Assembly: GCF_044704955.1 (NCBI RefSeq)
Contig: NW_027254627.1
Location: 1-64,000, forward strand
Source of the DNA: Pristiophorus japonicus
Taxonomy: Eukaryota
Reading direction: 5' to 3'
Length of the DNA stretch: 64,000 nucleotides
The notes beneath the pieces were generated by a model. The model saw only the letters and a program-made list of their open reading frames with translations. It was not told the DNA's origin and did no database searches. This document shows positions 1-39,567 of the stretch, in pieces. The first letter of the stretch is position 1. Each line of letters begins with the position of its first letter. Made by a program: the position numbers and the translations under genes.

Positions 1-1650
1 GGGGAAAGGAGATGGGGGGGAAAGGGGATGGGGGGGAAAGGGGATGGGGGGGAAAGGAGATGGGGGAAAGGAGATGGGGGGAAAGGAGATGGGGGGGAAA
101 GGAGATGGGGGAAAGGAGATGGCGAGGAAAGGAGATGGGGGGAAAAGGAGATTGGTGGGGGGGGGAAAGGAAATGGGGGGGGGGGGGGAAAGGAGAAGTG
201 GGGGAGGCTGAATGGGCCGGGCTCGAGACTTTGGGCAGGGCCCGTCCCCAGCACCAGATTTACAGGTAGGTGGCGTTGGGTTGGGTTGGGTTGGGTCGGG
301 ATCGCGTTTCGTGTCGGGGGGAGCGCGGGTCGGGTTGGGGGGGTGGTGGGAGGGGGGTCGGTTCGGTTCGGGTCGGGGGGGGAGGGAGGGAGAGGGAGGT
401 CAGGTCGGGTGGAGGGAGGTCAGATCGCGACCAGTCGGGGGAGGGAAAGCGGGAGTCAGGTCGGGGTCGGTGTCGGGTCGGAGTTGGGGGCGGGTCCGGT
501 CCGGGGACGGGGGAAGCGGGAGTCGGGTTGGGGTCGGGGGCGGGTCGGAGTCGGGGGCGGGTCCGGTCCGGGGGCGGGGGAAGCGGGAGTCGGGTCGGAG
601 TCGGGGGCGGGTCCGGTCCGGGGGCGGGGGAAGCGGGAGTCGGGTCGGAGTCGGGGGCGGGTCCGGTCCGGGGGCGGGGGAAGCGGGAGTCGGGTCGGAG
701 TCGGGGGCGGGTCCGGTCCGGGGGCGGGGGAAGCGGGAGTCGGGTCGGTGTCGGGGTCGGGGGGAGGGGGGCGGAAGCGGGAGTCGGGTCGGGGTCGGGG
801 ATTGGGGGGGTGGTTGGGGGAAGCGGGAGTCGGGTCGGGGTCGGGTCCGGTCCGGGGGCGGGAGGGGGGGGGAGCGGGAGTCAGGTCGGTATCGGTGTCG
901 GGTCGGGGTCGGGGGCGGGTCCGGTCCGGGGGCGGGGGAAGCGGGAGTCGGGTCGGTGTCGGGGTCGGGGGGAGGGGGGCGGATGCGGGAGTTGGGTCGG
1001 GGTCAGGTCGGGTGTGGGGGCGGGGGGGGAAGCGGGAGTCGGGTCGGTGTCGGGTGTGGGGGCGGGGGGGGGAGCGGGAGTCGGGTCGGTGTTGGGTGTG
1101 GGGGCGGGGGGGGGGAGCGGGAGTCGGGTCGGTGTCGGGGTCGGGGGGAGGGGGGCGGATGCGGGAGTCGGGTCGGGGTCGGGGATTGGGGGGGTGGTTG
1201 GGGGAAGCGGGAGTCGGGTCGGGGTCAGGTCGGGTGTGGGGGCGGGGGGGGAGCGGGAGTCGGGTCGGGGTCGGGGATTGGGGGGGTGGTTGGGGGAAGC
1301 GGGAGTCGGGTCGGGGTCGGGTCGGGTCCGGGAGCGGGGGGGGGGAGCGGGAGTCGGGTCGGTGTCGGGTCCGGTCCCCAGGCGGGGGGCAGTAAGCGGG
1401 AGTCGGTGTCGGGTCGGGTCCGGGGGCGGGGGAAGCGGGAGTTGGGTCGGGGTCGGGGTCGGGGGGGGCGGTTGGGGGAAGCGGGAGTCGGGTCGGGGTC
1501 GGGGTCGGGGGGGGCGGTTGGGGGAAGCGGGAGTCGGGTCGGGGTCGGGTCGGGTCCGGGGGCGGGGGGGGGGAGCGGGAGTTGGGTCGGTGTCGGGTCC
1601 GGTCCCCAGGCGGGGGGCAGTAAGCGGGAGTCGGTGTCGGGTCGGGAGGA
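1..1650. repeat. G-rich low-complexity/minisatellite block: (GGGGGAAAGGAGAT)n at 1-200, then a ~50-bp unit GGGTCGGAGTCGGGGGCGGGTCCGGTCCGGGGGCGGGGGAAGCGGGAGTC and degenerate variants
   Basis: Tandem periodicity is directly visible (e.g. 541-740). The long Gly/Arg/Ser ORFs in all three + frames are a by-product of base composition. Confidence 0.95.
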
Positions 1651-1877
1651 AGTAGGAGCTGTAGTGCCCACTGTAGCGCGCATGTGCAGAGGTCCCGGCA
1701 CTGTTTTTAGCGCAGGGACCTGGCTCCGCCCCCTACAGCTCCTGCTGCGCTGCGCCGAGGGCCGAGGGCAGGGAGGTGGAGAATCTGGAGAGTTTTTTTA
1801 GGCGCACTTTGTGGCGCGAAAAACGGGCGTCCAGGTCAGGACTGCGCCGTTCTAGGCGCGTGTGGAAACTTGGGCCC
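1651..1877. mobile_element. Probable terminus of a non-autonomous DNA transposon (PIF/Harbinger-like MITE)
   Basis: GC-rich segment ending ...GGAAACTTGGGCCC. It cuts a CR1 ORF2 fragment right after the 'NVTPL' motif. The partner terminus is not in the window. Confidence 0.4.
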
Positions 1878-4648: not shown

Positions 4649-4999
4649 CATGTACGAGCTGCAGGCGTGTCTCAGTCTGGATCAGATTTATGTAATTGTC
4701 CCATCCCTTGTACTCCACCAGACACAGGTAAGTGTGGTTGTCCTTCACGCTCAGCTGCTTTATCCTGGTTGAAGCGTTTCCCTCCTTTGGGTTCCCGATG
4801 AGCTCGTACCGATTTCCACCATTTACAGTTGTCCAAGACCCTTTTGATTGGGCTCTAAATGTGACTATGTGTTGGTAGGGCTCCTTCCTCATCCATGTAA
4901 CAGTGGTCAGGTTGGTGTAGTCGCTGGGTGTGAACATACAGGGCAATGTAACCGAAGCTCCCTCGGTCCCTCTCACCACTGAGCCATTTCCACTAGCAG
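4649..4999 (-). CDS. Coding exon 3 of a Siglec-15-like Ig-superfamily gene: second V-set domain, no essential Arg
   Basis: Acceptor ...gtcctttcctcag|CT at 4999 and donor CATG|gtaaga at 4649; phase 1-1, 351 bp, open. Protein has VTLPC, VTW, RYELIGN, NAS..IKQL...D..TYLCLVE and TRLQLV. Confidence 0.9.
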
Positions 5000-5562
5000 C
5001 TGAGGAAAGGACAGACATCACAATATATCAGCGTTTTGATGAGAACTTTAATTTGTTTCAGTTCAGAGCTCTCCCTGTGGCCTATTGGTAGAGGCATTGC
5101 CCAGTGTCAGTAAGGATCCCAGGGAATGTGGGGTCAGGGGGCCAGGTAGCAGAATGGATTGAGAGATGCTACAAAACAGAAAATAGAGGATAGGAGACTA
5201 GCAGAAAGTGGGAGGTGGCATCCTTTGACTTACATTGAATGGTTCTATTAATACAACCCAATACCATCTGCTTTGGCTCTACATTGTTCCTGCACCGAGA
5301 GTGATCTATGCACAATAACACCTGGATCCCTTTCTCTCTGAACCACTTTCAGTGTTGTTCTCTGAAAATGGTAAGTGTATTCTGTGTTGATCCTACCTAC
5401 CTGCATCACACTGCATTTGTCGAGGTTAAATGCCGTATCAAATTTCTCATATGCTGTATCGCAAAATAGTATAACTGAAAGAAATCTATCTAATGTGCAT
5501 TTGCCTCACCCAAATGGCCTTCCTTAGAGCACAAGCCTGGTCAATGCATGTCAATGGACTAT

Positions 5563-8500
5563 TTAAGAACTTAAGAACATAAGAAATAGAAGCAGGAGTA
5601 GGCCATACGGCCCCTTGAGCCTGCTCCGCCATTTAATACGATCTTGGCTGATCTGATCATTGACTCAGGTCCACTTTCCTACCCTCTCCCCACAACCCCT
5701 TATTCCCTTATCGGTTAAGAAACTGTCTATCTCTGCTTTAAACGTATTCAATGTCCCAGCTCTCACAGCTCTCTGAAGCAGCGAATTACACAGATTTGCA
5801 ACCCTCTGAGAAAAGAAATTTCTCCTCATCTCAGTTTTAAATGGGCGGCCCTTTATTCTAAGATTATGCCCCCTAGTTCTAGTTCCCTTCATCAGTGGAA
5901 ACATTGGGCCCATACTCTCTACACCTTGTTAAGCACCCTCATAATCTTATACGTTTTGATAAGATCACCTCTCAATCTTCTGAATTCCAATGAGTAGAGG
6001 CCCAACCTACTCAAACTTTCCTCATAAGTCAACCCCCTCATCTCCGGAATCAACCTAGTGAACCTTCTCTGAACTGCCTCCAAAGCAAGTATATCCTTTT
6101 GTAAATATGGAAATCAAAACTGTACGCAGTATTCCAGGTGTGGTCTCACCAATACCTTGCATAACTGTAGCAAGACTTCCCTGCTTTTATACTCCATCCC
6201 CTTTGCAATAAAGGCCAAGATTCCATTGGCCTTCCTGATCACTTGCTGTACCTGCATACTAACCTTTTGTGTTTCATGCACAAGAACCAACAGGCCCCGC
6301 TGTTCTTCAGCACTTTGCAATCTTTCTCCATTTAAATGTTAGATGCAGGAAGAATGTTCCCGATGTTGGGAAAGTCCAGAACCAGGGGACATAGTCTAAG
6401 GATAAGGGGTAAGCCATTTAGGACTGAGATGAGGAGAAACTTCTTCACTCAGAGAGTTGTTAATCTTTGGAATTCCCTACTGCAGAGAGTTGTTGATGCC
6501 AATTCATTGGATATATTCAAGCGGGAGTTAGATATGGCCCTTAGGGCTAAAGGGATCAAGGGGTATGGAGAGAAAGCAGGAAAGGGGTACTGAGGTGAAT
6601 GATCAGCCATGATCATGTTGAATGGTGGTGCAGGCTCGAAGGGCTGAATGGCCTACTCCTGCACCTATTTTCTACGTTTCTTTGTAATAACTTGCTCTTT
6701 GATTTTTTTCTGTCAAAGTGCATGACCTCACACTTTCCAACATTATACGCATCTGCCAAATTTTTGCCCACTCACTTAGCTTGAAGATTTTTTGTGCCCT
6801 CACACATTGCTTTTCCTCCCATTTTGTATCATCAGCAAACTTGGCTACGTTACATTCGGTCCCTTCTTCCAAGTCGTTAACATAGATTTTAAATAGTTGG
6901 GGTCCCAGCACTAATCCCTGCGGCATCCCACTAGTTACTGATCTAACTTACTTCCTGCATCTAACCTGTCTAAACCCATCAGAATTTTAAACGTTTCTAT
7001 GAGGTCGCCTCTCATTCTTCTGAACTCCAGTGAATACAAGCCCAGTTGATCCAGTCTTTCTTGATAGGTCAGTCCCGCCATCCCGAGAATCAGTCTGGTG
7101 AACCTTCGCTGCACTCCCTCAATAGCAAGAATGTCCTTCCTCAGGTTAGGAGACCAAAACTGTACACAATACTCCAGGTGTGGCCTCACCAAGGCCCTGT
7201 ACAACTGTAGCAACACCTCCCTGCCCCTGTACTCAAATCCCCTCGCTATGAAGGCCAACATGCCATTTGCTTTCTTAACCGCCTGCTGCACCTGCATGCC
7301 AACCTTCAATGACTGATGTACCATGACACCCAGGTCTCGTTGCACCTCCCCTTTTCCTAATCTGTCACCATTCAGATAATAGTCTGTCTCTCTGTTTTTA
7401 CCACCAAAGTGGATAACCTCACATTTATCCACATTATACTTCATCTGTCATGCATTTGCCCACTCACCTAACCTATCCAAGTCGCTCTGCAGTCTCATAG
7501 CATCCTCCTCGCAGCTCACACTGCCACCCAACTTAGTGTCATCCGTAAATTTGGAGATACTACATTTAATCCCCTCGTCTAAATCATTAATGTACAGTGT
7601 AAACAGCTGGGGCCCCAGCACAGAACCTTGCGGTACCCCACTAGTCACTGCCTGCCATTCTGAAAAGTACCCATTTACTCCTACTCTTTGCTTCCTGTCT
7701 GACAACCAGTTCTCAATCTATGTCAGCACACTACCCCCAATCCCATGTGCTTTAACTTTGCACATTAATCTCTTGTGTGGGACCTTGTCGAAAGCCTTCT
7801 GAAAGTCCAAATATACCACATCAACTGGTTCTCCCTTGTCCACTCTACTGGAAACATCCTCAAAAACCATTTATCCATTTATCCCGGCTCTCTGTTTTCT
7901 GTTTGATAGCCAATCCTCTATCCATGCTAATATATTACCCGCAACCCCATTAACTTATATCTTGTACAGTAACCTTTTATGGGGCACCTTGTCAAATGCC
8001 TTCTGGAAGTCCAAATATACCACATCCACTGGTTCCCCTTTACCCACCCTCTTCGTTACATCCTCAAAGAATGCCAGCAAATTTGTCAAACATGACTTCC
8101 CCTTCATAAATCCATGCTGACTCTGCCTGACCTATAGAAACTTTTGATATCTGTTTTTATATTTTGTGTTAGTTTAATTTCATAGTCTATCGTCCCTTTC
8201 TTAATAATTTTTTAGTCATTCTTTGCTGGCTTTTAAAAGCTTCGAAATCTTCTGTCCTCCCACTAGTTTTGGCCACTTTGTATGCCCTTGTTTTTAATTG
8301 GATTTATTTCTTTAGTTAGCCGCGGCTGGCTATCTTTTCTCTTGCACCCTTTCCTCCTCATTGGAATATATTTTTCTTGAGAGTTGTGAATTATCTCCTT
8401 AAACGTACACCACTACTCATCAATTGTCCTACACTTTAATCTATTTTCCCAGTCCACTTTAGCCAACTCTGCCCTCATGCCTTCATAGTCTCCTTTATTT

Positions 8501-8612
8501 AAGCTTAGTACGTTGATTAGAGATTCAACTTTCTCACCCTCCATCTAAATTTGAAATTTAATCATGCTATGATCACTCATTCCAAGGGGATCCTTTACTA
8601 GGACATTGTTTG
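5563..8612 (-). mobile_element. Nested CR1 cluster: a minus-strand CR1 (5563-6336, 6681-6937, 7867-8612) interrupted by a plus-strand 3' fragment (6337-6680) and a minus-strand piece of a younger subfamily (6951-7866)
   Basis: RT and C-terminal motifs in ORFs 5665-5913, 6114-6320, 6336-6593, 6672-6926, 6935-7444 and 7448-7705. The host sequence is collinear across the inserts. Confidence 0.88.
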
Positions 8613-8692
8613 TCTATGGAGAGCATCACAGGCAGGCCCAATGTCTCATCCAATGTCCAAGAACACACCTACTGGAGAATGATCAGGAGCAG

Positions 8693-9283
8693 TGTTGTAG
8701 GAAGTAGGCACCTGCAGAATATATCAAAACACTAGGCATTAGGCACCTGTTAAATATATCTCAACTCATATAAGTTTAAAGTGTCCACACATAAAATGGC
8801 TGCCCAGGCATGATGGGAAATTAGGTAGTCAAGCTGTGAACTATTGACTGAGCAATGACCGAGCAATGACCCTGTGAGGCCCACTACCAGGAATGCCTTG
8901 GATACAAGATAAGAATAATAAACCAATTATTTCCCCAGGAAGAAAGAGATAAGGAGAGAACCTATCTCCTATAACAAGGTCATTAATCAGCCCGAGCTGA
9001 CAAAAACCGAACATGCAGTTCCTGAGGCACCAGGGGAATTCTATTGGGTTAAAAGAACCTATATAATCGTTATGATTGGATTATGTCCAGCCGTGATGGG
9101 CTGAGTAACTGTAGTAAACTGTTGTGAAACATATAAAAATCCATGTAACCCTTTGTTCTGTGGAGAGAAGCCTGGATACAGTCCTGAGACTTCCTCCCCG
9201 CTGAGCGTTAATAAAGGCCGCATTGGCGTTGGAACCGACTCTGAGTGTTGAGTGATTCTTCTGAGAAAACATTCACGCTAACA
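8693..9283 (+). mobile_element. Solo LTR (591 bp) with 5-bp TSD AGCAG
   Basis: TGTT...AACA termini; AGCAG at 8688-8692 and 9284-9288; TATAAAA at ~9133 and AATAAA at ~9210 on the + strand. Confidence 0.85.
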
Positions 9284-9427
9284 AGCAGGAACCCCAGGCA
9301 ATATACCCCCTTCATAGCCCGGGGTTGCTGAAAGTTTATTGATCCGTGTGGCTCAGGACCAGACCAGGTGGAGCCTTTCCCCACTAAGCTATCGGAGCAG
9401 CGACAGCCCCTGAGCATTGATCCTCAC

Positions 9428-9814
9428 CTCTCACACTCAGATCCGTTCCTTTCGATGTTCCAAATTTGCCAATATTGAGCTCCACACGACACAGATAACC
9501 AGCATTGTCCGCCTGGCTCAGCCGCTCCATCATTATCGAGGCATCTTTGTTGCTGAGGTTCCCCACGAATCTCAATCGATTCCCGCCTTCCTGCTGCCTC
9601 ACAATCTCACACAGCTCGCCCTGTTTATGGCCCAGACCAGAATATGTGCAGGTAAAAATAACGTTCCCTCTGTGACCTTTGAACCAAATCACAGTGCCGG
9701 TGAGCGGGCGATCAGTGGGTGGGTGGGTGAAACTGCACGGCAAGACAGCAGACCTCCCTTCCTCAGCACTCACTGTATCCGCGATGGTCATTGTCCAACC
9801 ATTGACAGAAAGCT
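9428..9814 (-). CDS. Coding exon 2 of the Siglec-15-like gene: N-terminal V-set sialic-acid-binding-type domain
   Basis: Acceptor ...tctctctccacag|AG at 9814 and donor AGAG|gtgagg at 9428; phase 1-1, 387 bp. WTMTIADTVSAEEGRSAVLPCSFTHP...IW...FTC...ELC...RFVGN...ERL..AD...YLCRVE has the 4-Cys pattern and F-strand Arg of Siglec-15. Confidence 0.92.
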
Positions 9815-25762: not shown

Positions 25763-25823
25763 TGTGACCCTGCACCGAGACCGACAGCAGGACTGCGGGA
25801 AGCCAAACGTAGAGAGAATTCAT
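25763..25823 (-). CDS. Coding exon 1 (signal peptide) of the Siglec-15-like gene: MNSLYVWLPAVLLSVSVQGH+A
   Basis: GCG-ATG start at 25823, a hydrophobic 20-aa leader, and phase-1 donor CACA|gtaggt at 25763. It splices in frame to the 9814 acceptor (A+AG = Lys) and lies in non-repetitive sequence. Confidence 0.8.
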
Positions 25824-35635: not shown

Positions 35636-36583
35636 ATGGAAGGAGAGCTCGGCCATGTGATATGCTCCTCCTGTACCATGTGGGAACTCGGGGACACTTC
35701 CGGTGTCCCTGGGCGCTACGTGTGTGGGAAGTGTATCCGCCTCGAGCTCTTGACGGTCCGCGTTGCGGAATTGGAGCTGAGGGTGGATTCACTCTGGAGC
35801 ATCCACGATGCTGAGAATGACGTGAGTATCACGTGTAGTGAGTTGGTCTTACCGCAGGAGAAGGGTCCACAGCCAGATAGGGAATGGAAGACCAGCAGGA
35901 AGAGCAGCGCAAGAAAGATAGTGCAAGGGTCCCCTGTGGTCATCCCCCTGCAAAATAGATACACCGCTTTGGGTACTGTTGAGGGGGATGACTCATCAGG
36001 AGAGGGCAGCAGCAGCCAAGTTCATGGCACCGTGGCTGGCTCTGCTGCACAGGAGGGCAGGAAAAAGAGTGGGAGAGCTATAGTGATAGAGGATTCGATG
36101 GTGAGGGGAATAGATAGGCGTTTCTGCGGACGCAACCGAGACTCCAGGATGGTATGTTGCCTCCCTGGTGCAAGGGTCAAGGATGTCTCGGAGCGGGTGC
36201 AGGACATTCTGAAATGGGAGGGAGAACAGCCAGTTGTCGTGGTGCACATTGGTACCAACGACATAGGTAAAAAAAGGGATGAGGTCCTACGAAACGAATT
36301 TAAGGAGCTAGGAGCTAAATTAAAAAGTAGGACCTCAAAAGTAGTAATCTCGGGATTGCTACCAGTGCCACGTGCTAGTCAGAGTAGGAATCGCAGGATA
36401 GTGCAGATGAATACATGGCTTGAGCAGTGGTGCAGCAGGGAGGGATTCAAATTCTTGGGGCATTGGAACCGGTTCTGGGGGAGGTGGGACCAGTACAAAC
36501 CGGACGGACTGCACCTGGGCAGGACCGGAACCAATGTCCTAGGGGGAGTGTTTGCTAGTGCTGTTGGGGAGGAGTTAAACTAA
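35636..36583 (+). CDS. CR1 ORF1p: zinc finger/leucine zipper plus SGNH (GDSL-type) esterase-like domain
   Basis: CSSC...CGKC, heptad Leu repeat, (E)DS block, HIGTND and DGLH; 315 aa, open. Confidence 0.92.
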   Translation: MEGELGHVICSSCTMWELGDTSGVPGRYVCGKCIRLELLTVRVAELELRVDSLWSIHDAENDVSITCSELVLPQEKGPQPDREWKTSRKSSARKIVQGSPVVIPLQNRYTALGTVEGDDSSGEGSSSQVHGTVAGSAAQEGRKKSGRAIVIEDSMVRGIDRRFCGRNRDSRMVCCLPGARVKDVSERVQDILKWEGEQPVVVVHIGTNDIGKKRDEVLRNEFKELGAKLKSRTSKVVISGLLPVPRASQSRNRRIVQMNTWLEQWCSREGFKFLGHWNRFWGRWDQYKPDGLHLGRTGTNVLGGVFASAVGEELN

Positions 36584-36660
36584 TATTACAGGGGGATGGG
36601 AACCTATGCAGGGAGACAGAGGGAGACAAAAATGAGGCAAAAGCAAAAGACAGAAAGGAG

Positions 36661-39567
36661 ATGAGGAAAAGTGGAGGGCAGAGAAACCCAAGGCGAAGAA
36701 CAAAAAGGGCCACTGTACAGCAAAATTCTAAAAGGACAAAGGGTGTTAAAAAAGCAAGCCTGAAGGCTTTGTGTCTTAATGCAAGGAGTATCCGCAATAA
36801 GGTGGATGAATTAACTGTGCAAATAGATGTTAACAAATATGATGTGATTGGGATTACGGAGACGTGGCTCCAGGATGATCAGGGCTGGGAACTCAACATC
36901 CAGGGGTATTCAACATTCAGGAAGGATAGAATAAAAGGAAAAGGAGGTGGGGTAGCATTGCTGGTTAAAGAGGAGATTAATGCAATAGTTAGGAAAGACA
37001 TTAGCTTGGATGATGTGGAATCTATATGGGTAGAGCTGCAGAACACTAAAGGGCAAAAATCATTAGTGGGAGTTGTGTACAGACCTCCAAACAGTAGTAG
37101 TGATGTTGGGGAGGGCATCAAACAGGAAATTAGGAGTGCATGCAATAAAGGTGTAGCAGTTATAATGGGTGACTTTAATATGCACATAGATTGTGCCAGC
37201 CAAACTGGAAGCAATACGATGGAGGAGGATTTCCTGGAGTGCATAAGGGATGGTTTTCTAGACCAATATGTCGAGGAACCAACTAGGGGGAAGGCCATCT
37301 TAGACTGGGTGTTGTGTAATGAGAGAGGATTAATTAGCAATCTCATTGTGCGAGGCCCCTTGGGGAAGAGTGACCATAATATGGTGGAATTCTGCATTAG
37401 GATGGAGAATGAAACAGTTAATTCAGAGACCATGGTCCAGAACTTAAAAAAGGGTAACTTTGAAGGTATGAGGCATGAATTGGCTAAGATAGATTGGCTA
37501 ATGATACTTAAGGGGTTGACTGTGGATGGGCAATGGCAGACATTTAGAGACCGCATGGATGAATTACAACAATTGTACATTCCTGTCTGGCGTAAAAATA
37601 AAAAAGGGAAGGTGGCTCAACCGTGGCTATCTAGGGAAATCAGGGATAGTATTAAAGCCAAGGAAATGGCATACAAATTGGCCAGAAATAGCAGCGAACC
37701 TGGGGACTGGGAGAAATTTAGAACTCAGCAGAGGAGGACAAAGGGTTTGATTAGGGCAGGGAAAATGGAGTACGAGAAGAAGCTTGCAGGGAACATTAAG
37801 GCGGATTGCAAAAGTTTCTATAGGTATGTAAAGAGAAAAAGGTTAGTAAAGACAAACGTAGGTCCCCTGCAGTCAGAATCAGGGGAAGTCATAACGGGGA
37901 ACAAAGAAATGGCAGACCAATTGAACAAGTACTTTGGTTCAATATTCACTAAGGAGGACACAAACAACCTTCCGGATATAAAAGTGGTCAGAGGGTCTAA
38001 TAAGGAGGAGGAACTGAGGGAAATCTTTATTAGTCGGGAAATTGTGTTTGGGAAATTGATGGGATTGAAGGCCGATAAATCCCCAGGGCCTGATGGACTG
38101 CATCCCAGAGTACTTAAGGAGGTGGCCTTGGAAATAGCGGATGCATTGACAGTCATTTTCCAACATTCCATTGACTCTGGATCAGTTCCTATCGAGTGGA
38201 GGGTAGCCAATGTAACCCCACTTTTCAAAAAAGGAGGGAGAGAGAAAGCAGGGAATTATAAACCGGTCAGCCTGACCTCAGTAGTGGGTAAAATGATGGA
38301 ATCAATTATTAAGGATGTCATAGCAGCGCATTTGGAAAATGGTGACATGATAGGTCCAAGTCAGCATGGATTTGTGAAAGGGAGATCATGCTTGACAAAT
38401 CTTCTGGAATTTTTTGAGGATGTTTCCAATAAAGTGAACAAAGGAGTACCAGTTGATGTGGTATATTTGGACTTTCAGAAGGCTTTCGACAAGGTCCCAC
38501 ACAGGAGATTAATGTGCAAAGTTAAAGCACATGGGATTGGGGGTAGTGTGCTGACGTGGATTGAGAACTGGTTGTCAGACAGGAAGCAAAGAGTAGGAGT
38601 AAATGGGTACTTTTTGGAATGGCAGGCAGTGACTAGTGGGGTACCGCAGGGTTCTGTGCTGGGGCCCCAGTTGTTTACATTGTACATTAATGATTTAGAC
38701 GAGGGGATTAAATGTAGTATCTCCAAATTTGCGGATGACACTAAGTTGGGTGGCAGTGTGAGCTGCGAGGAGGATGCTATGAGGCTGCAGAGTGACTTGG
38801 ATAGGTTAGGTGAGTGGGCAAATGCGTGGCAGATGAAGTATAATGTGGATAAATGTGAGGTTATCCACTTTGGTGGTAAAAACAGAGAGACAGACTATTA
38901 TCTGAATGGTGACAGATTAGGAAAAGGGAAGGTGCAACGAGACCTGGGTGTCATGGTACATCAGTCATTGAAGGTTGGCATGCAGGTACAGCAGGCGGTT
39001 AAGAAAGCAAATGGCATGTTGGCCTTCATAGCGAGGGGATTTGAGTACAGGGGCAGGGAGGTGTTGCTACAGTTGTACAGGGCCTTGGTGAGGCCACACC
39101 TGGAGTATTGTGTACAGTTTTGGTCTCCTAACTTGAGGAAGGACATTCTTGCTATTGAGGGAGTGCAGCGAAGATTCACCAGACTGATTCCCGGGATGGT
39201 GGGACTGACCTATCAAGAAAGACTGGATCAACTGGGCTTGTATTCACTGGAGTTCAGAAGAGTGAGAGGGGACCTCATAGAAACGTTTAAAATTCTGATG
39301 GGTTTGGACAGGTTGGATGCAGGAAGAATGTTCCCAATGTTGGGGAAGTCCAGAACCAGGGGTCACAGTCTAAGGATAAGGGGTAAGCCATTTAGGACCG
39401 AGATAAGGAGAAACTTCTTCACCCAGAGAGTGGTGAACCTGTGGAATTCTCTACCACAGGAAGTAGTTGAGGCCAATTCACTAAATATATTCAAAAGGGA
39501 GTTAGATGAAGTCCTTACTACTCGGGGGATCAAGGGGTATGGCGTGAAAGCAGGAAGGGGGTACTGA
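36661..39567 (+). CDS. CR1 ORF2p: APE endonuclease plus reverse transcriptase
   Basis: 968 aa, open: CLNARS, ETW, YRPP, GDFN, LDW, SDH; [25 protein letters not shown]. The frame is open upstream to 36559 and overlaps the end of ORF1. Confidence 0.95.
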   Translation: MRKSGGQRNPRRRTKRATVQQNSKRTKGVKKASLKALCLNARSIRNKVDELTVQIDVNKYDVIGITETWLQDDQGWELNIQGYSTFRKDRIKGKGGGVALLVKEEINAIVRKDISLDDVESIWVELQNTKGQKSLVGVVYRPPNSSSDVGEGIKQEIRSACNKGVAVIMGDFNMHIDCASQTGSNTMEEDFLECIRDGFLDQYVEEPTRGKAILDWVLCNERGLISNLIVRGPLGKSDHNMVEFCIRMENETVNSETMVQNLKKGNFEGMRHELAKIDWLMILKGLTVDGQWQTFRDRMDELQQLYIPVWRKNKKGKVAQPWLSREIRDSIKAKEMAYKLARNSSEPGDWEKFRTQQRRTKGLIRAGKMEYEKKLAGNIKADCKSFYRYVKRKRLVKTNVGPLQSESGEVITGNKEMADQLNKYFGSIFTKEDTNNLPDIKVVRGSNKEEELREIFISREIVFGKLMGLKADKSPGPDGLHPRVLKEVALEIADALTVIFQHSIDSGSVPIEWRVANVTPLFKKGGREKAGNYKPVSLTSVVGKMMESIIKDVIAAHLENGDMIGPSQHGFVKGRSCLTNLLEFFEDVSNKVNKGVPVDVVYLDFQKAFDKVPHRRLMCKVKAHGIGGSVLTWIENWLSDRKQRVGVNGYFLEWQAVTSGVPQGSVLGPQLFTLYINDLDEGIKCSISKFADDTKLGGSVSCEEDAMRLQSDLDRLGEWANAWQMKYNVDKCEVIHFGGKNRETDYYLNGDRLGKGKVQRDLGVMVHQSLKVGMQVQQAVKKANGMLAFIARGFEYRGREVLLQLYRALVRPHLEYCVQFWSPNLRKDILAIEGVQRRFTRLIPGMVGLTYQERLDQLGLYSLEFRRVRGDLIETFKILMGLDRLDAGRMFPMLGKSRTRGHSLRIRGKPFRTEIRRNFFTQRVVNLWNSLPQEVVEANSLNIFKRELDEVLTTRGIKGYGVKAGRGY

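Follow-up and report, generated by a model that had tools for sequence, protein, structure and literature searches.

Whether a Siglec-like receptor can present two V-set domains in tandem, with no C2-set domain between them, is the question raised by a locus at the beginning of contig NW_027254627.1 (here C4015) of the sawshark Pristiophorus japonicus (assembly GCF_044704955.1). The window analysed is the first 64 kb of that contig (positions 1 to 64,000), and the exons after V2 fall outside it. An initial annotation had read two consecutive exons, V1 and V2, as a non-canonical tandem Siglec with an Arg-positive V followed by an Arg-negative one. Together the two exons encode the outer part of a single shark receptor; they belong to one gene, are spliced to each other and have no C2 exon between them. 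Their lengths are divisible by three, their borders are AG...GT and both are in phase 1-1. Each passes the Pfam V-set cut-off of 26 bits (V1 with 45.8 bits, E 7.6e-12; V2 with 59.1 bits, E 5.5e-16), and the Pfam I-set and ig profiles stayed below their own cut-offs for both domains, C2-set families being unlisted. V1 presents Arg109 within the motif YLCRVE and has cysteines at 26, 55, 68 and 108; V2 presents Leu93 within YLCLVE and has cysteines at 20 and 92 only, hence the extra Cys pair is absent, as had been noticed. The four N-glycosylation sequons listed for V2 (NGS, NLT, NAS and NHT) were confirmed, and V1 has one, NLS. The two domains are 35% identical, and V2 is modelled as a full V domain (predicted local distance difference test, pLDDT, 90.2). 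None of the 70 minus-strand open frames of at least 60 amino acids between 1855 and 25758 encodes a further Ig domain, a C2 profile built from relatives matched nothing anywhere in the window, and the V1-V2 gene has a single leader there. No C2 exon was thus found at 5000-9427, V2 did not score as a C2- or I-set domain, and no separate V2 gene with its own leader was seen.

The splice evidence comes from assembled contigs of three public runs of one study, the kind of material not being on record and none being listed as RNA. Contigs from two of the three runs join 9428 to 4999 across 4428 nucleotides (nt) with CT..AC ends, and one spliced contig agrees with the window in every letter from 9428 to 9624, a stretch in which the genome's six other V1 copies show 6 to 24 nucleotide differences. 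The intron had been accounted for by CR1 and long terminal repeat (LTR) sequence, and this holds for most of it. It contains reverse-transcriptase pieces at 6675-6947 and 7451-7717, belonging to a long interspersed element (LINE) that we take to be of CR1 type, and a solo LTR whose copies elsewhere form same-strand pairs spaced 5-9 kb. About 0.5 kb beside V2, however, is without high-copy repeat.

V1 finds its best sequence match in the PDB in Siglec-15 (7zoz, E 7.3e-16), with 61.5 bits against 29.1 on CD33. The V domain of Siglec-15 is described by the role of Arg143, by Trp44 and Tyr154 and by the cysteines C64-C142 plus C95-C104 (PMC10264397). Equivalents of the three residues (Trp6, Arg109 and Phe117) and both disulfides (Cys26/108 and Cys55/68) are retained in V1; the Trp is kept in all 45 V1 domains covering the site, and the Phe in 37 of 50. 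A predicted model of a paralogue can be superimposed on Siglec-15 over V1 with Z 12.9 and a root-mean-square deviation (rmsd) of 1.8 for 120 residues. When bird Siglec-15 was searched against the genome, the receptor cluster described below provided the top 18 of 39 matches, none above 42% identity (only the best candidates were scored). Among those best candidates neither a close one-to-one Siglec-15 copy nor a canonical V-C2-Lys gene was seen, and the cluster may replace the canonical gene in this genome.

Several observations weigh against a closer identification. V1 has no equivalent of Siglec-15 Tyr87, its FG loop is shorter, and in a tree of 73 rows and 129 columns, the deep forks of which are weak, it falls outside the bony-vertebrate Siglec-15 group. 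The human SIGLEC15 gene has as neighbours what we take to be SLC14A, EPG5, PSTPIP2, ATP5F1A and ARK2N, in this presumed order; three of these neighbours lie on scaffold C2 (urea transporters at C2:100.7-101.2 Mb, ATP synthase alpha at C2:46.69 Mb and an ARK2N-like gene at C2:46.92 Mb), and the receptor cluster on scaffold C1:11.2-13.3 Mb. A search of the genome with the FCH domain did not single out PSTPIP2. The receptor is named Siglec-15-related rather than Siglec-15 because the C2 domain and the neighbourhood fail. Fold alone is insufficient to name the family, since the Foldseek matches are generic: the two-domain paralogue model retrieved V-V proteins such as JAML, pIgR and single-chain variable fragments (scFv), and the V2 model retrieved nectin-1 and VSIG4 ahead of Siglec-15 (rank 15). 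The ESM Atlas likewise returned generic V-set clusters.

The signalling end of the gene was approached through the chromosome scaffold. C4015:39188-103000 matches C1:12621274-12685155 at about 99%, ending at a gap of 200 N (C1:12685156-12685355), and 1.8 kb past this gap, on the matching strand, there is an exon for a transmembrane helix with a Lys; ahead of this exon V exons were not found. The Lys-helix exon is here of 100 nt, and the helix aligns with that of bird Siglec-15. Contigs from all three runs, aligned on a paralogue at C1:12.92 Mb, join V2 to an exon of the Lys-helix type and then to a short tail exon; two long ones (runs X1 and X2) have the letters of the window and of the copy on contig C4093 in V2, not those of the C1:12.92 Mb paralogue. 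The window copy is very likely a Lys form because its contig runs into the C1 gap backed by a Lys exon and because its type of V2 is spliced onto one. The predicted protein, a strong proposal drawn from these alignments, would be leader-V1-V2-helix(Lys)-tail, with a tail of about 10 residues lacking a tyrosine motif. To be set against this, both long contigs are C4093-like in V2 and carry no exact window alleles, the four Lys exons of the assembly encode one identical helix peptide, and the transmembrane exon lies beyond the window, being assigned through gap position and short contigs. C4015 appears to hold sequence missing from C1, and C4093 is a third version of the region, about 98% identical.

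A search of the genome with V1 found seven close copies, each with a V2 partner 1-5 kb behind; they are located at C1:11.2-13.3 Mb and on two contigs that are unplaced. Two of the V2 copies are broken, and such copies in the cluster point to birth-and-death turnover. Database proteins of P. japonicus match the cluster loci letter for letter. P0009 is the C4093 copy, 89% (V1) and 97% (V2) identical to the window domains. P0010, whose tail bears an immunoreceptor tyrosine-based inhibitory motif (ITIM), is encoded at C1:11.21 Mb with domains 88% identical, and four Lys exons lie in the same cluster. No remnant of a C2 domain was detected ahead of the transmembrane exons in the copies at C1:11.21 and 12.92 Mb.

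Beyond this genome the 42 longer homologues come exclusively from sharks, skates and rays. The count of V-V relatives in cartilaginous fishes that had been suggested as a check gave V1-V2 in 40 of the 42, V1 only in two and C2 in none; some models repeat the V1-V2 pair or V2 (up to three times), or start with V2. Skipping of an exon would keep the frame, as the phases had indicated, but was not seen in the runs aligned: loss of V2 was seen only in the two V1-only database models, which retain V1 and the transmembrane exon. When 1.84 billion representatives were searched with a profile, a sister subfamily of V1-V2-C2-helix structure emerged in chimaera, sharks and rays, with both Lys and neutral forms. 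V2-C2 is present in 23 of 23 proteins matched with its chimaera member, and its C2 domain and helix share one open frame; we infer that the window's subfamily may have lost C2 through trimming of the C2-helix exon. For a more distantly related gene of the cluster, a word-based search with its V1 gave no match at E 1e-12.

The homologues are of two types, one with a neutral helix, many of them with ITIM-like tails (P0010, P0021, P0046 and P0047), and one with a Lys helix and a short tail (P0016, P0034, P0041 and P0043). In the tree the outer domains group by species rather than by signalling type (Heterodontus 99/97 and 100/98; sawshark 100/99 and 100/93). This matches the conversion pattern of paired receptors, the outer domains of which are kept alike by gene conversion (PMC13358205). 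Linked genes, similar outer domains and opposite predicted signalling motifs are features of paired immune receptors, and all are present here; a paired activating/inhibitory family goes beyond the initial annotation. That annotation's Arg-positive V1 is correct for the window gene, yet it is not a family rule, as Arg occupies the site in 38 of 50 family domains only. By class it is present in 4 of 10 Lys-type against 22 of 24 neutral-helix domains (p 0.003, the rows being related rather than independent, and 16 domains without an assigned helix being left out), and the window gene is among the Lys-type copies that keep it. At the corresponding position of V2, Arg occurs in none of the 56 domains of the window's subfamily.

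Variation is distributed unequally between the two domains. Among five intact copies 39 of 130 sites vary in V1 and 16 of 116 in V2. A comparison with the C4093 copy gives 20 differences in the 387 nt of V1 and 107 in 9585 nt of the introns (p 8e-8); as shares of bases, 5.2% differ in V1 against 0.7% and 1.4% in the introns, and synonymous and non-synonymous differences are both raised in V1 (0.051 and 0.055). The proposed comparison of selection was carried out with the ratio of non-synonymous to synonymous differences (pN/pS) but does not separate the domains: the value of V1, 1.44 (95% interval 0.90-2.80), overlaps that of V2, 0.82 (0.39-1.98), which weighs against a specially selected V1, and positive selection is unsupported in either domain among the intact copies. 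Across species V1 is most variable near the C-C' loop and the G strand, and V2 in the BC and FG loops. V2 has on average 3.0 sequons and V1 1.9; those of V2 are retained unevenly (NAS in 51/56, NHT in 35/56, NGS in 26/55 and NLT in 5/56 domains).

The reading that we consider probable is that V1-V2 forms the outer part of a likely activating member of an old paired family, in which V1 is the predicted ligand tip and V2 a likely glycosylated spacer replacing C2. Duplication of a Siglec-15-type V exon would predate the separation of chimaeras from sharks and rays and would have given V-V-C2-TM (TM, transmembrane segment); the family would then have expanded into a cluster, and the window's subfamily would later have lost C2. 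The GFC face of V1 would meet the ligand, which in the Arg-positive copies has about an even chance of being a sialylated glycan. Since the tail, about 10 residues long, has no signalling motif, the transmembrane Lys would couple to an adaptor of DAP12 type, and the activating copy would counterbalance ITIM siblings open to exploitation by microbes. Sialic-acid binding, adaptor coupling and signalling are proposed functions only, read from sequence. For Siglec-15 it is reported that the Lys recruits a DAP12-type adaptor (PMC6941304, PMC7226832). A search of the genome for the DAP10 family gave no match, which is uninformative on adaptors since the exons are tiny. Against this reading, zebrafish Siglec-15 bound the tested glycans poorly despite its Arg (PMC7226832), and V2 shows hypervariable BC and FG loops between species, a feature for which a mere spacer would have no need.

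It is a serious possibility, if not the one we expect, that the receptor has the Siglec-15 fold without being a sialic-acid lectin, that V1 reads microbial or host proteins, and that its Arg is a relic maintained by conversion from inhibitory siblings. The scarcity of Arg among Lys-type V1 domains given above favours it, as do the Gly found at the Arg site in two other Lys-type copies of the genome and the raised synonymous and non-synonymous differences from C4093, which fit exon-limited conversion. However, the window V1 holds Trp, Arg and the G-strand aromatic together, and the Trp and the Phe are widely kept in the family. A wider proposal, which we regard as rather doubtful, would have the Siglec-15 lineage, one conserved gene in mammals, becoming a KIR-like paired cluster in cartilaginous fishes before the chimaera-shark split, so that paired Siglecs arose there independently, with inhibitory Arg members reading self sialic acid, activating ones shedding Arg and tracking microbes, and V2, through its CDR-like variable loops, adding a non-glycan recognition surface.

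As to V2, the initial annotation had left a choice between a glycosylated stalk and a second binding module. Its higher number of sequons and its lower variation among paralogues speak for the former, but the loops do not. It seems to us unlikely that V2, rather than acting as a spacer, recognises a non-glycan ligand, either as a module of its own or by forming one half of a surface shared with V1. Variation in the 56 V2 domains is centred on BC and FG loops, equivalents of complementarity-determining regions CDR1 and CDR3 of antibodies, FG-loop changes dominate among the sawshark copies, the predicted V fold is complete, and some models hold three V2 repeats or open with V2. Nevertheless, in a head-to-tail tandem these loops would face the base of V1 and may merely set the hinge angle, in other respects V2 is the better conserved and more heavily glycosylated of the two domains, and the models without V2 keep V1-TM. 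The likely assignment of V2 is still the spacer.

The origin of V2 is a related matter. Its best sequence match in the PDB is again Siglec-15, with TIM-1 and TIM-2 second and third; it lacks the Trp, the Arg and the extra Cys pair, yet retains the 'EPY' loop motif of Siglec-15 that is absent from V1. The V2 model superimposes on Siglec-15 with Z 14.9 and rmsd 2.1 over 110 residues, against Z 12.9 for TIM-2, VSIG4 and nectin-1 tying within 1 Z. In the tree the V domains in second position, 25 in all from sharks, rays and chimaera, group as a single clade (96/94), and the inclusion of all V2, also that of chimaera, in it implies that the V duplication predates the chimaera-elasmobranch split. 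The V-exon duplication of the initial annotation is upheld as to source, V2 being most likely derived from a Siglec-15-type V exon, but it is ancient and family-wide, not local, as indicated by the low identity and the single clade. It is quite improbable that V2 was instead shuffled in from a TIM-type V exon. TIM-type rows adjoin the V2 clade at 93/90, which weighs against the Siglec-15 derivation together with the PDB ranks of TIM-1 and TIM-2, and the N-terminal Trp strand is absent in V2, as in TIM. On the other hand, V2 profile scores are 169 for shark V1, 156 for bony-vertebrate Siglec-15-like V and 101 for TIM (two TIM rows only, so that the score is depressed), the V2 model is closer to Siglec-15, and the TIM branches are long. 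TIM V domains have four extra cysteines and are followed by a mucin stalk; V2 has two Cys only and is joined straight to the transmembrane exon, so these features are not found in it. Finally, we rejected, as having next to no chance, the view that the pair results from misassembly, from a local duplication of recent date or from two separate genes. In its favour, the window lies at the end of an unplaced contig, and the region occurs several times in the assembly; against it, the splice joint uses exact sites, the pair recurs in five further copies of the same genome and in the homologues, and there is one leader.

The family can be placed among known receptors. It resembles Siglec-15 in a V domain with B-F disulfide and extra C'-C'' Cys pair, a transmembrane Lys and a short tail (PDB 7zoz; PMC10264397, PMC6941304). 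It differs in that the second domain is V-set, not C2, and the Arg is variable, and in being a multigene cluster with ITIM-tailed partners, against one conserved gene, the neighbours that could be located lying elsewhere. A tandem V is not without precedent among Siglecs: primate Siglec-12 has two N-terminal V-set domains, and in chimpanzee the terminal one bears an Arg-dependent site (PMC7876704, PMC6288428). Siglec-12, however, is CD33-related, keeps C2 and recruits SHP-2 (PMC7876704, PMC6288428), whereas the shark family is related to Siglec-15, is without C2 and has both signalling types; we infer that the V-V arrangement is convergent. In Siglec-5/14 and Siglec-11/16, too, the paired genes are linked, their outer domains are nearly identical, one partner signals through an ITIM and the other in the DAP12-type manner, and duplication and gene conversion have shaped them; these, however, are mammalian genes of the CD33-related group, with a single V alongside C2 domains (PMC13358205). 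PILR-alpha and PILR-beta are similar as a pair with a Siglec-fold V bearing Arg, one inhibitory and one DAP12-coupled (PMC13358205). They differ from the shark gene, whose V1 has the Siglec-15 extra Cys pair and whose helix is of the Siglec-15 Lys type. The PILRs have one V domain and no C2.

Reviews count Siglec-15 among four conserved Siglecs and assign pairing and rapid change to the CD33-related group (PMC7226832, PMC13358205). If our reading is true, the logic of self sugar versus mimic arose separately in the oldest jawed-vertebrate lineage, the shark cluster offers a way to test directly what the activating partners recognise, and its members are candidate innate receptors for shark leukocytes. 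Paired Siglec-like receptors and tandem V domains are already known from mammals, so the surprise is limited; what appears to be newly described is an old Siglec-15-related V-V family of sharks and rays with likely activating and likely inhibitory forms. Automatic RefSeq and UniRef models (e.g. P0009, P0010, P0011 and P0016) share the leader-V1-V2(-TM) structure under inconsistent names (A33 antigen-like, pIgR-like, Siglec-10/12/15, uncharacterized) and are not recognised as one paired family. No description of the shark double-V family was found in literature outside subscription journals and supplements, of which the shark genome supplements may list genes; the whale shark genome paper has one generic mention of Siglecs (PMC8455134), and PMC4016189 does not cover the family.

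Features of the V1-V2 receptor gene and its surroundings (window positions unless a scaffold is named)
Feature	Position	Strand	Remarks
Predicted leader (signal peptide) coding exon	25763..25823	minus	61 nt, phase 1, GT donor; matches N-terminus of P0009 in 20/20 residues
V1 exon, Siglec-15-type V-set	9428..9814	minus	387 nt; Trp6, Cys26/108, Cys55/68, Arg109, Phe117
Arg109 codon	9486..9488	minus	aligned with Siglec-15 Arg143
V1-V2 intron	5000..9427	minus	4428 nt, GT-AG, without Ig exon
Solo LTR in V1-V2 intron	8693..9283		TG...CA, 5-nt flanking repeat
V2 exon, second V-set domain	4649..4999	minus	351 nt; Leu93 at Arg position, without A-strand Trp
GC-rich low-complexity tandem repeat	1..1700		contig end, within intron downstream of V2
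Best candidate Lys transmembrane exon for window gene	G000:C1:12687129-12687224	matching	gap position and spliced contigs

Some minor observations were made alongside. The GC-rich repeat at 1-1700 is the probable cause of the assembly break. LINE and LTR-retrotransposon sequence makes up most of the window, which has a LINE-type open frame of 1002 codons at 36559-39564 (+). About 76 kb upstream of the leader of the window gene, on the same strand, C4015:101644-102788 contains, from a gene of the sister subfamily, the exons for V2 and for C2 plus neutral helix (L080, L102 and L107); the V1 of that gene is matched in part at C4015:132033-132206. In that subfamily (P0070, P0081, P0235 and P0240-P0245) the V1 Arg site is Leu in most Lys-type and Arg in most neutral-helix members, the chimaera Lys form P0079 being an exception. 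Broken V2 copies lie at C1:12480342-12480689, 11286431-11286774 and 12405861-12406031 (stop, frameshift and fragment). The sole V-C2 gene seen in the cluster, C1:12735169-12735498 plus 12723985-12724362 (L064 and L065), has the Arg, no extra Cys pair and a neutral helix, so it is not a canonical Lys-type Siglec-15. Further V exons at C4:53.94 Mb and C4:76.99-77.04 Mb (L015, L043, L044 and L075) comprise an Arg-less pair distantly like the family and two that are presumably TIM-type. Two tandem urea-transporter genes, at C2:100.71 and 101.06 Mb, are 54 Mb away from ATP synthase alpha; in human the two kinds of gene are, we assume, adjacent. Database isoforms without the transmembrane exon (P0011, P0040, P0013, P0026 and P0035, from four genera) would be secreted. 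Tandem Siglec-15-like V domains are also present in lungfish (two and seven V domains), salamanders, gar and serrasalmid fishes (P0045, P0072, P0075, P0092, P0080 and P0099); they are mostly Arg-positive, fall outside the V2 clade and apparently represent separate duplications.

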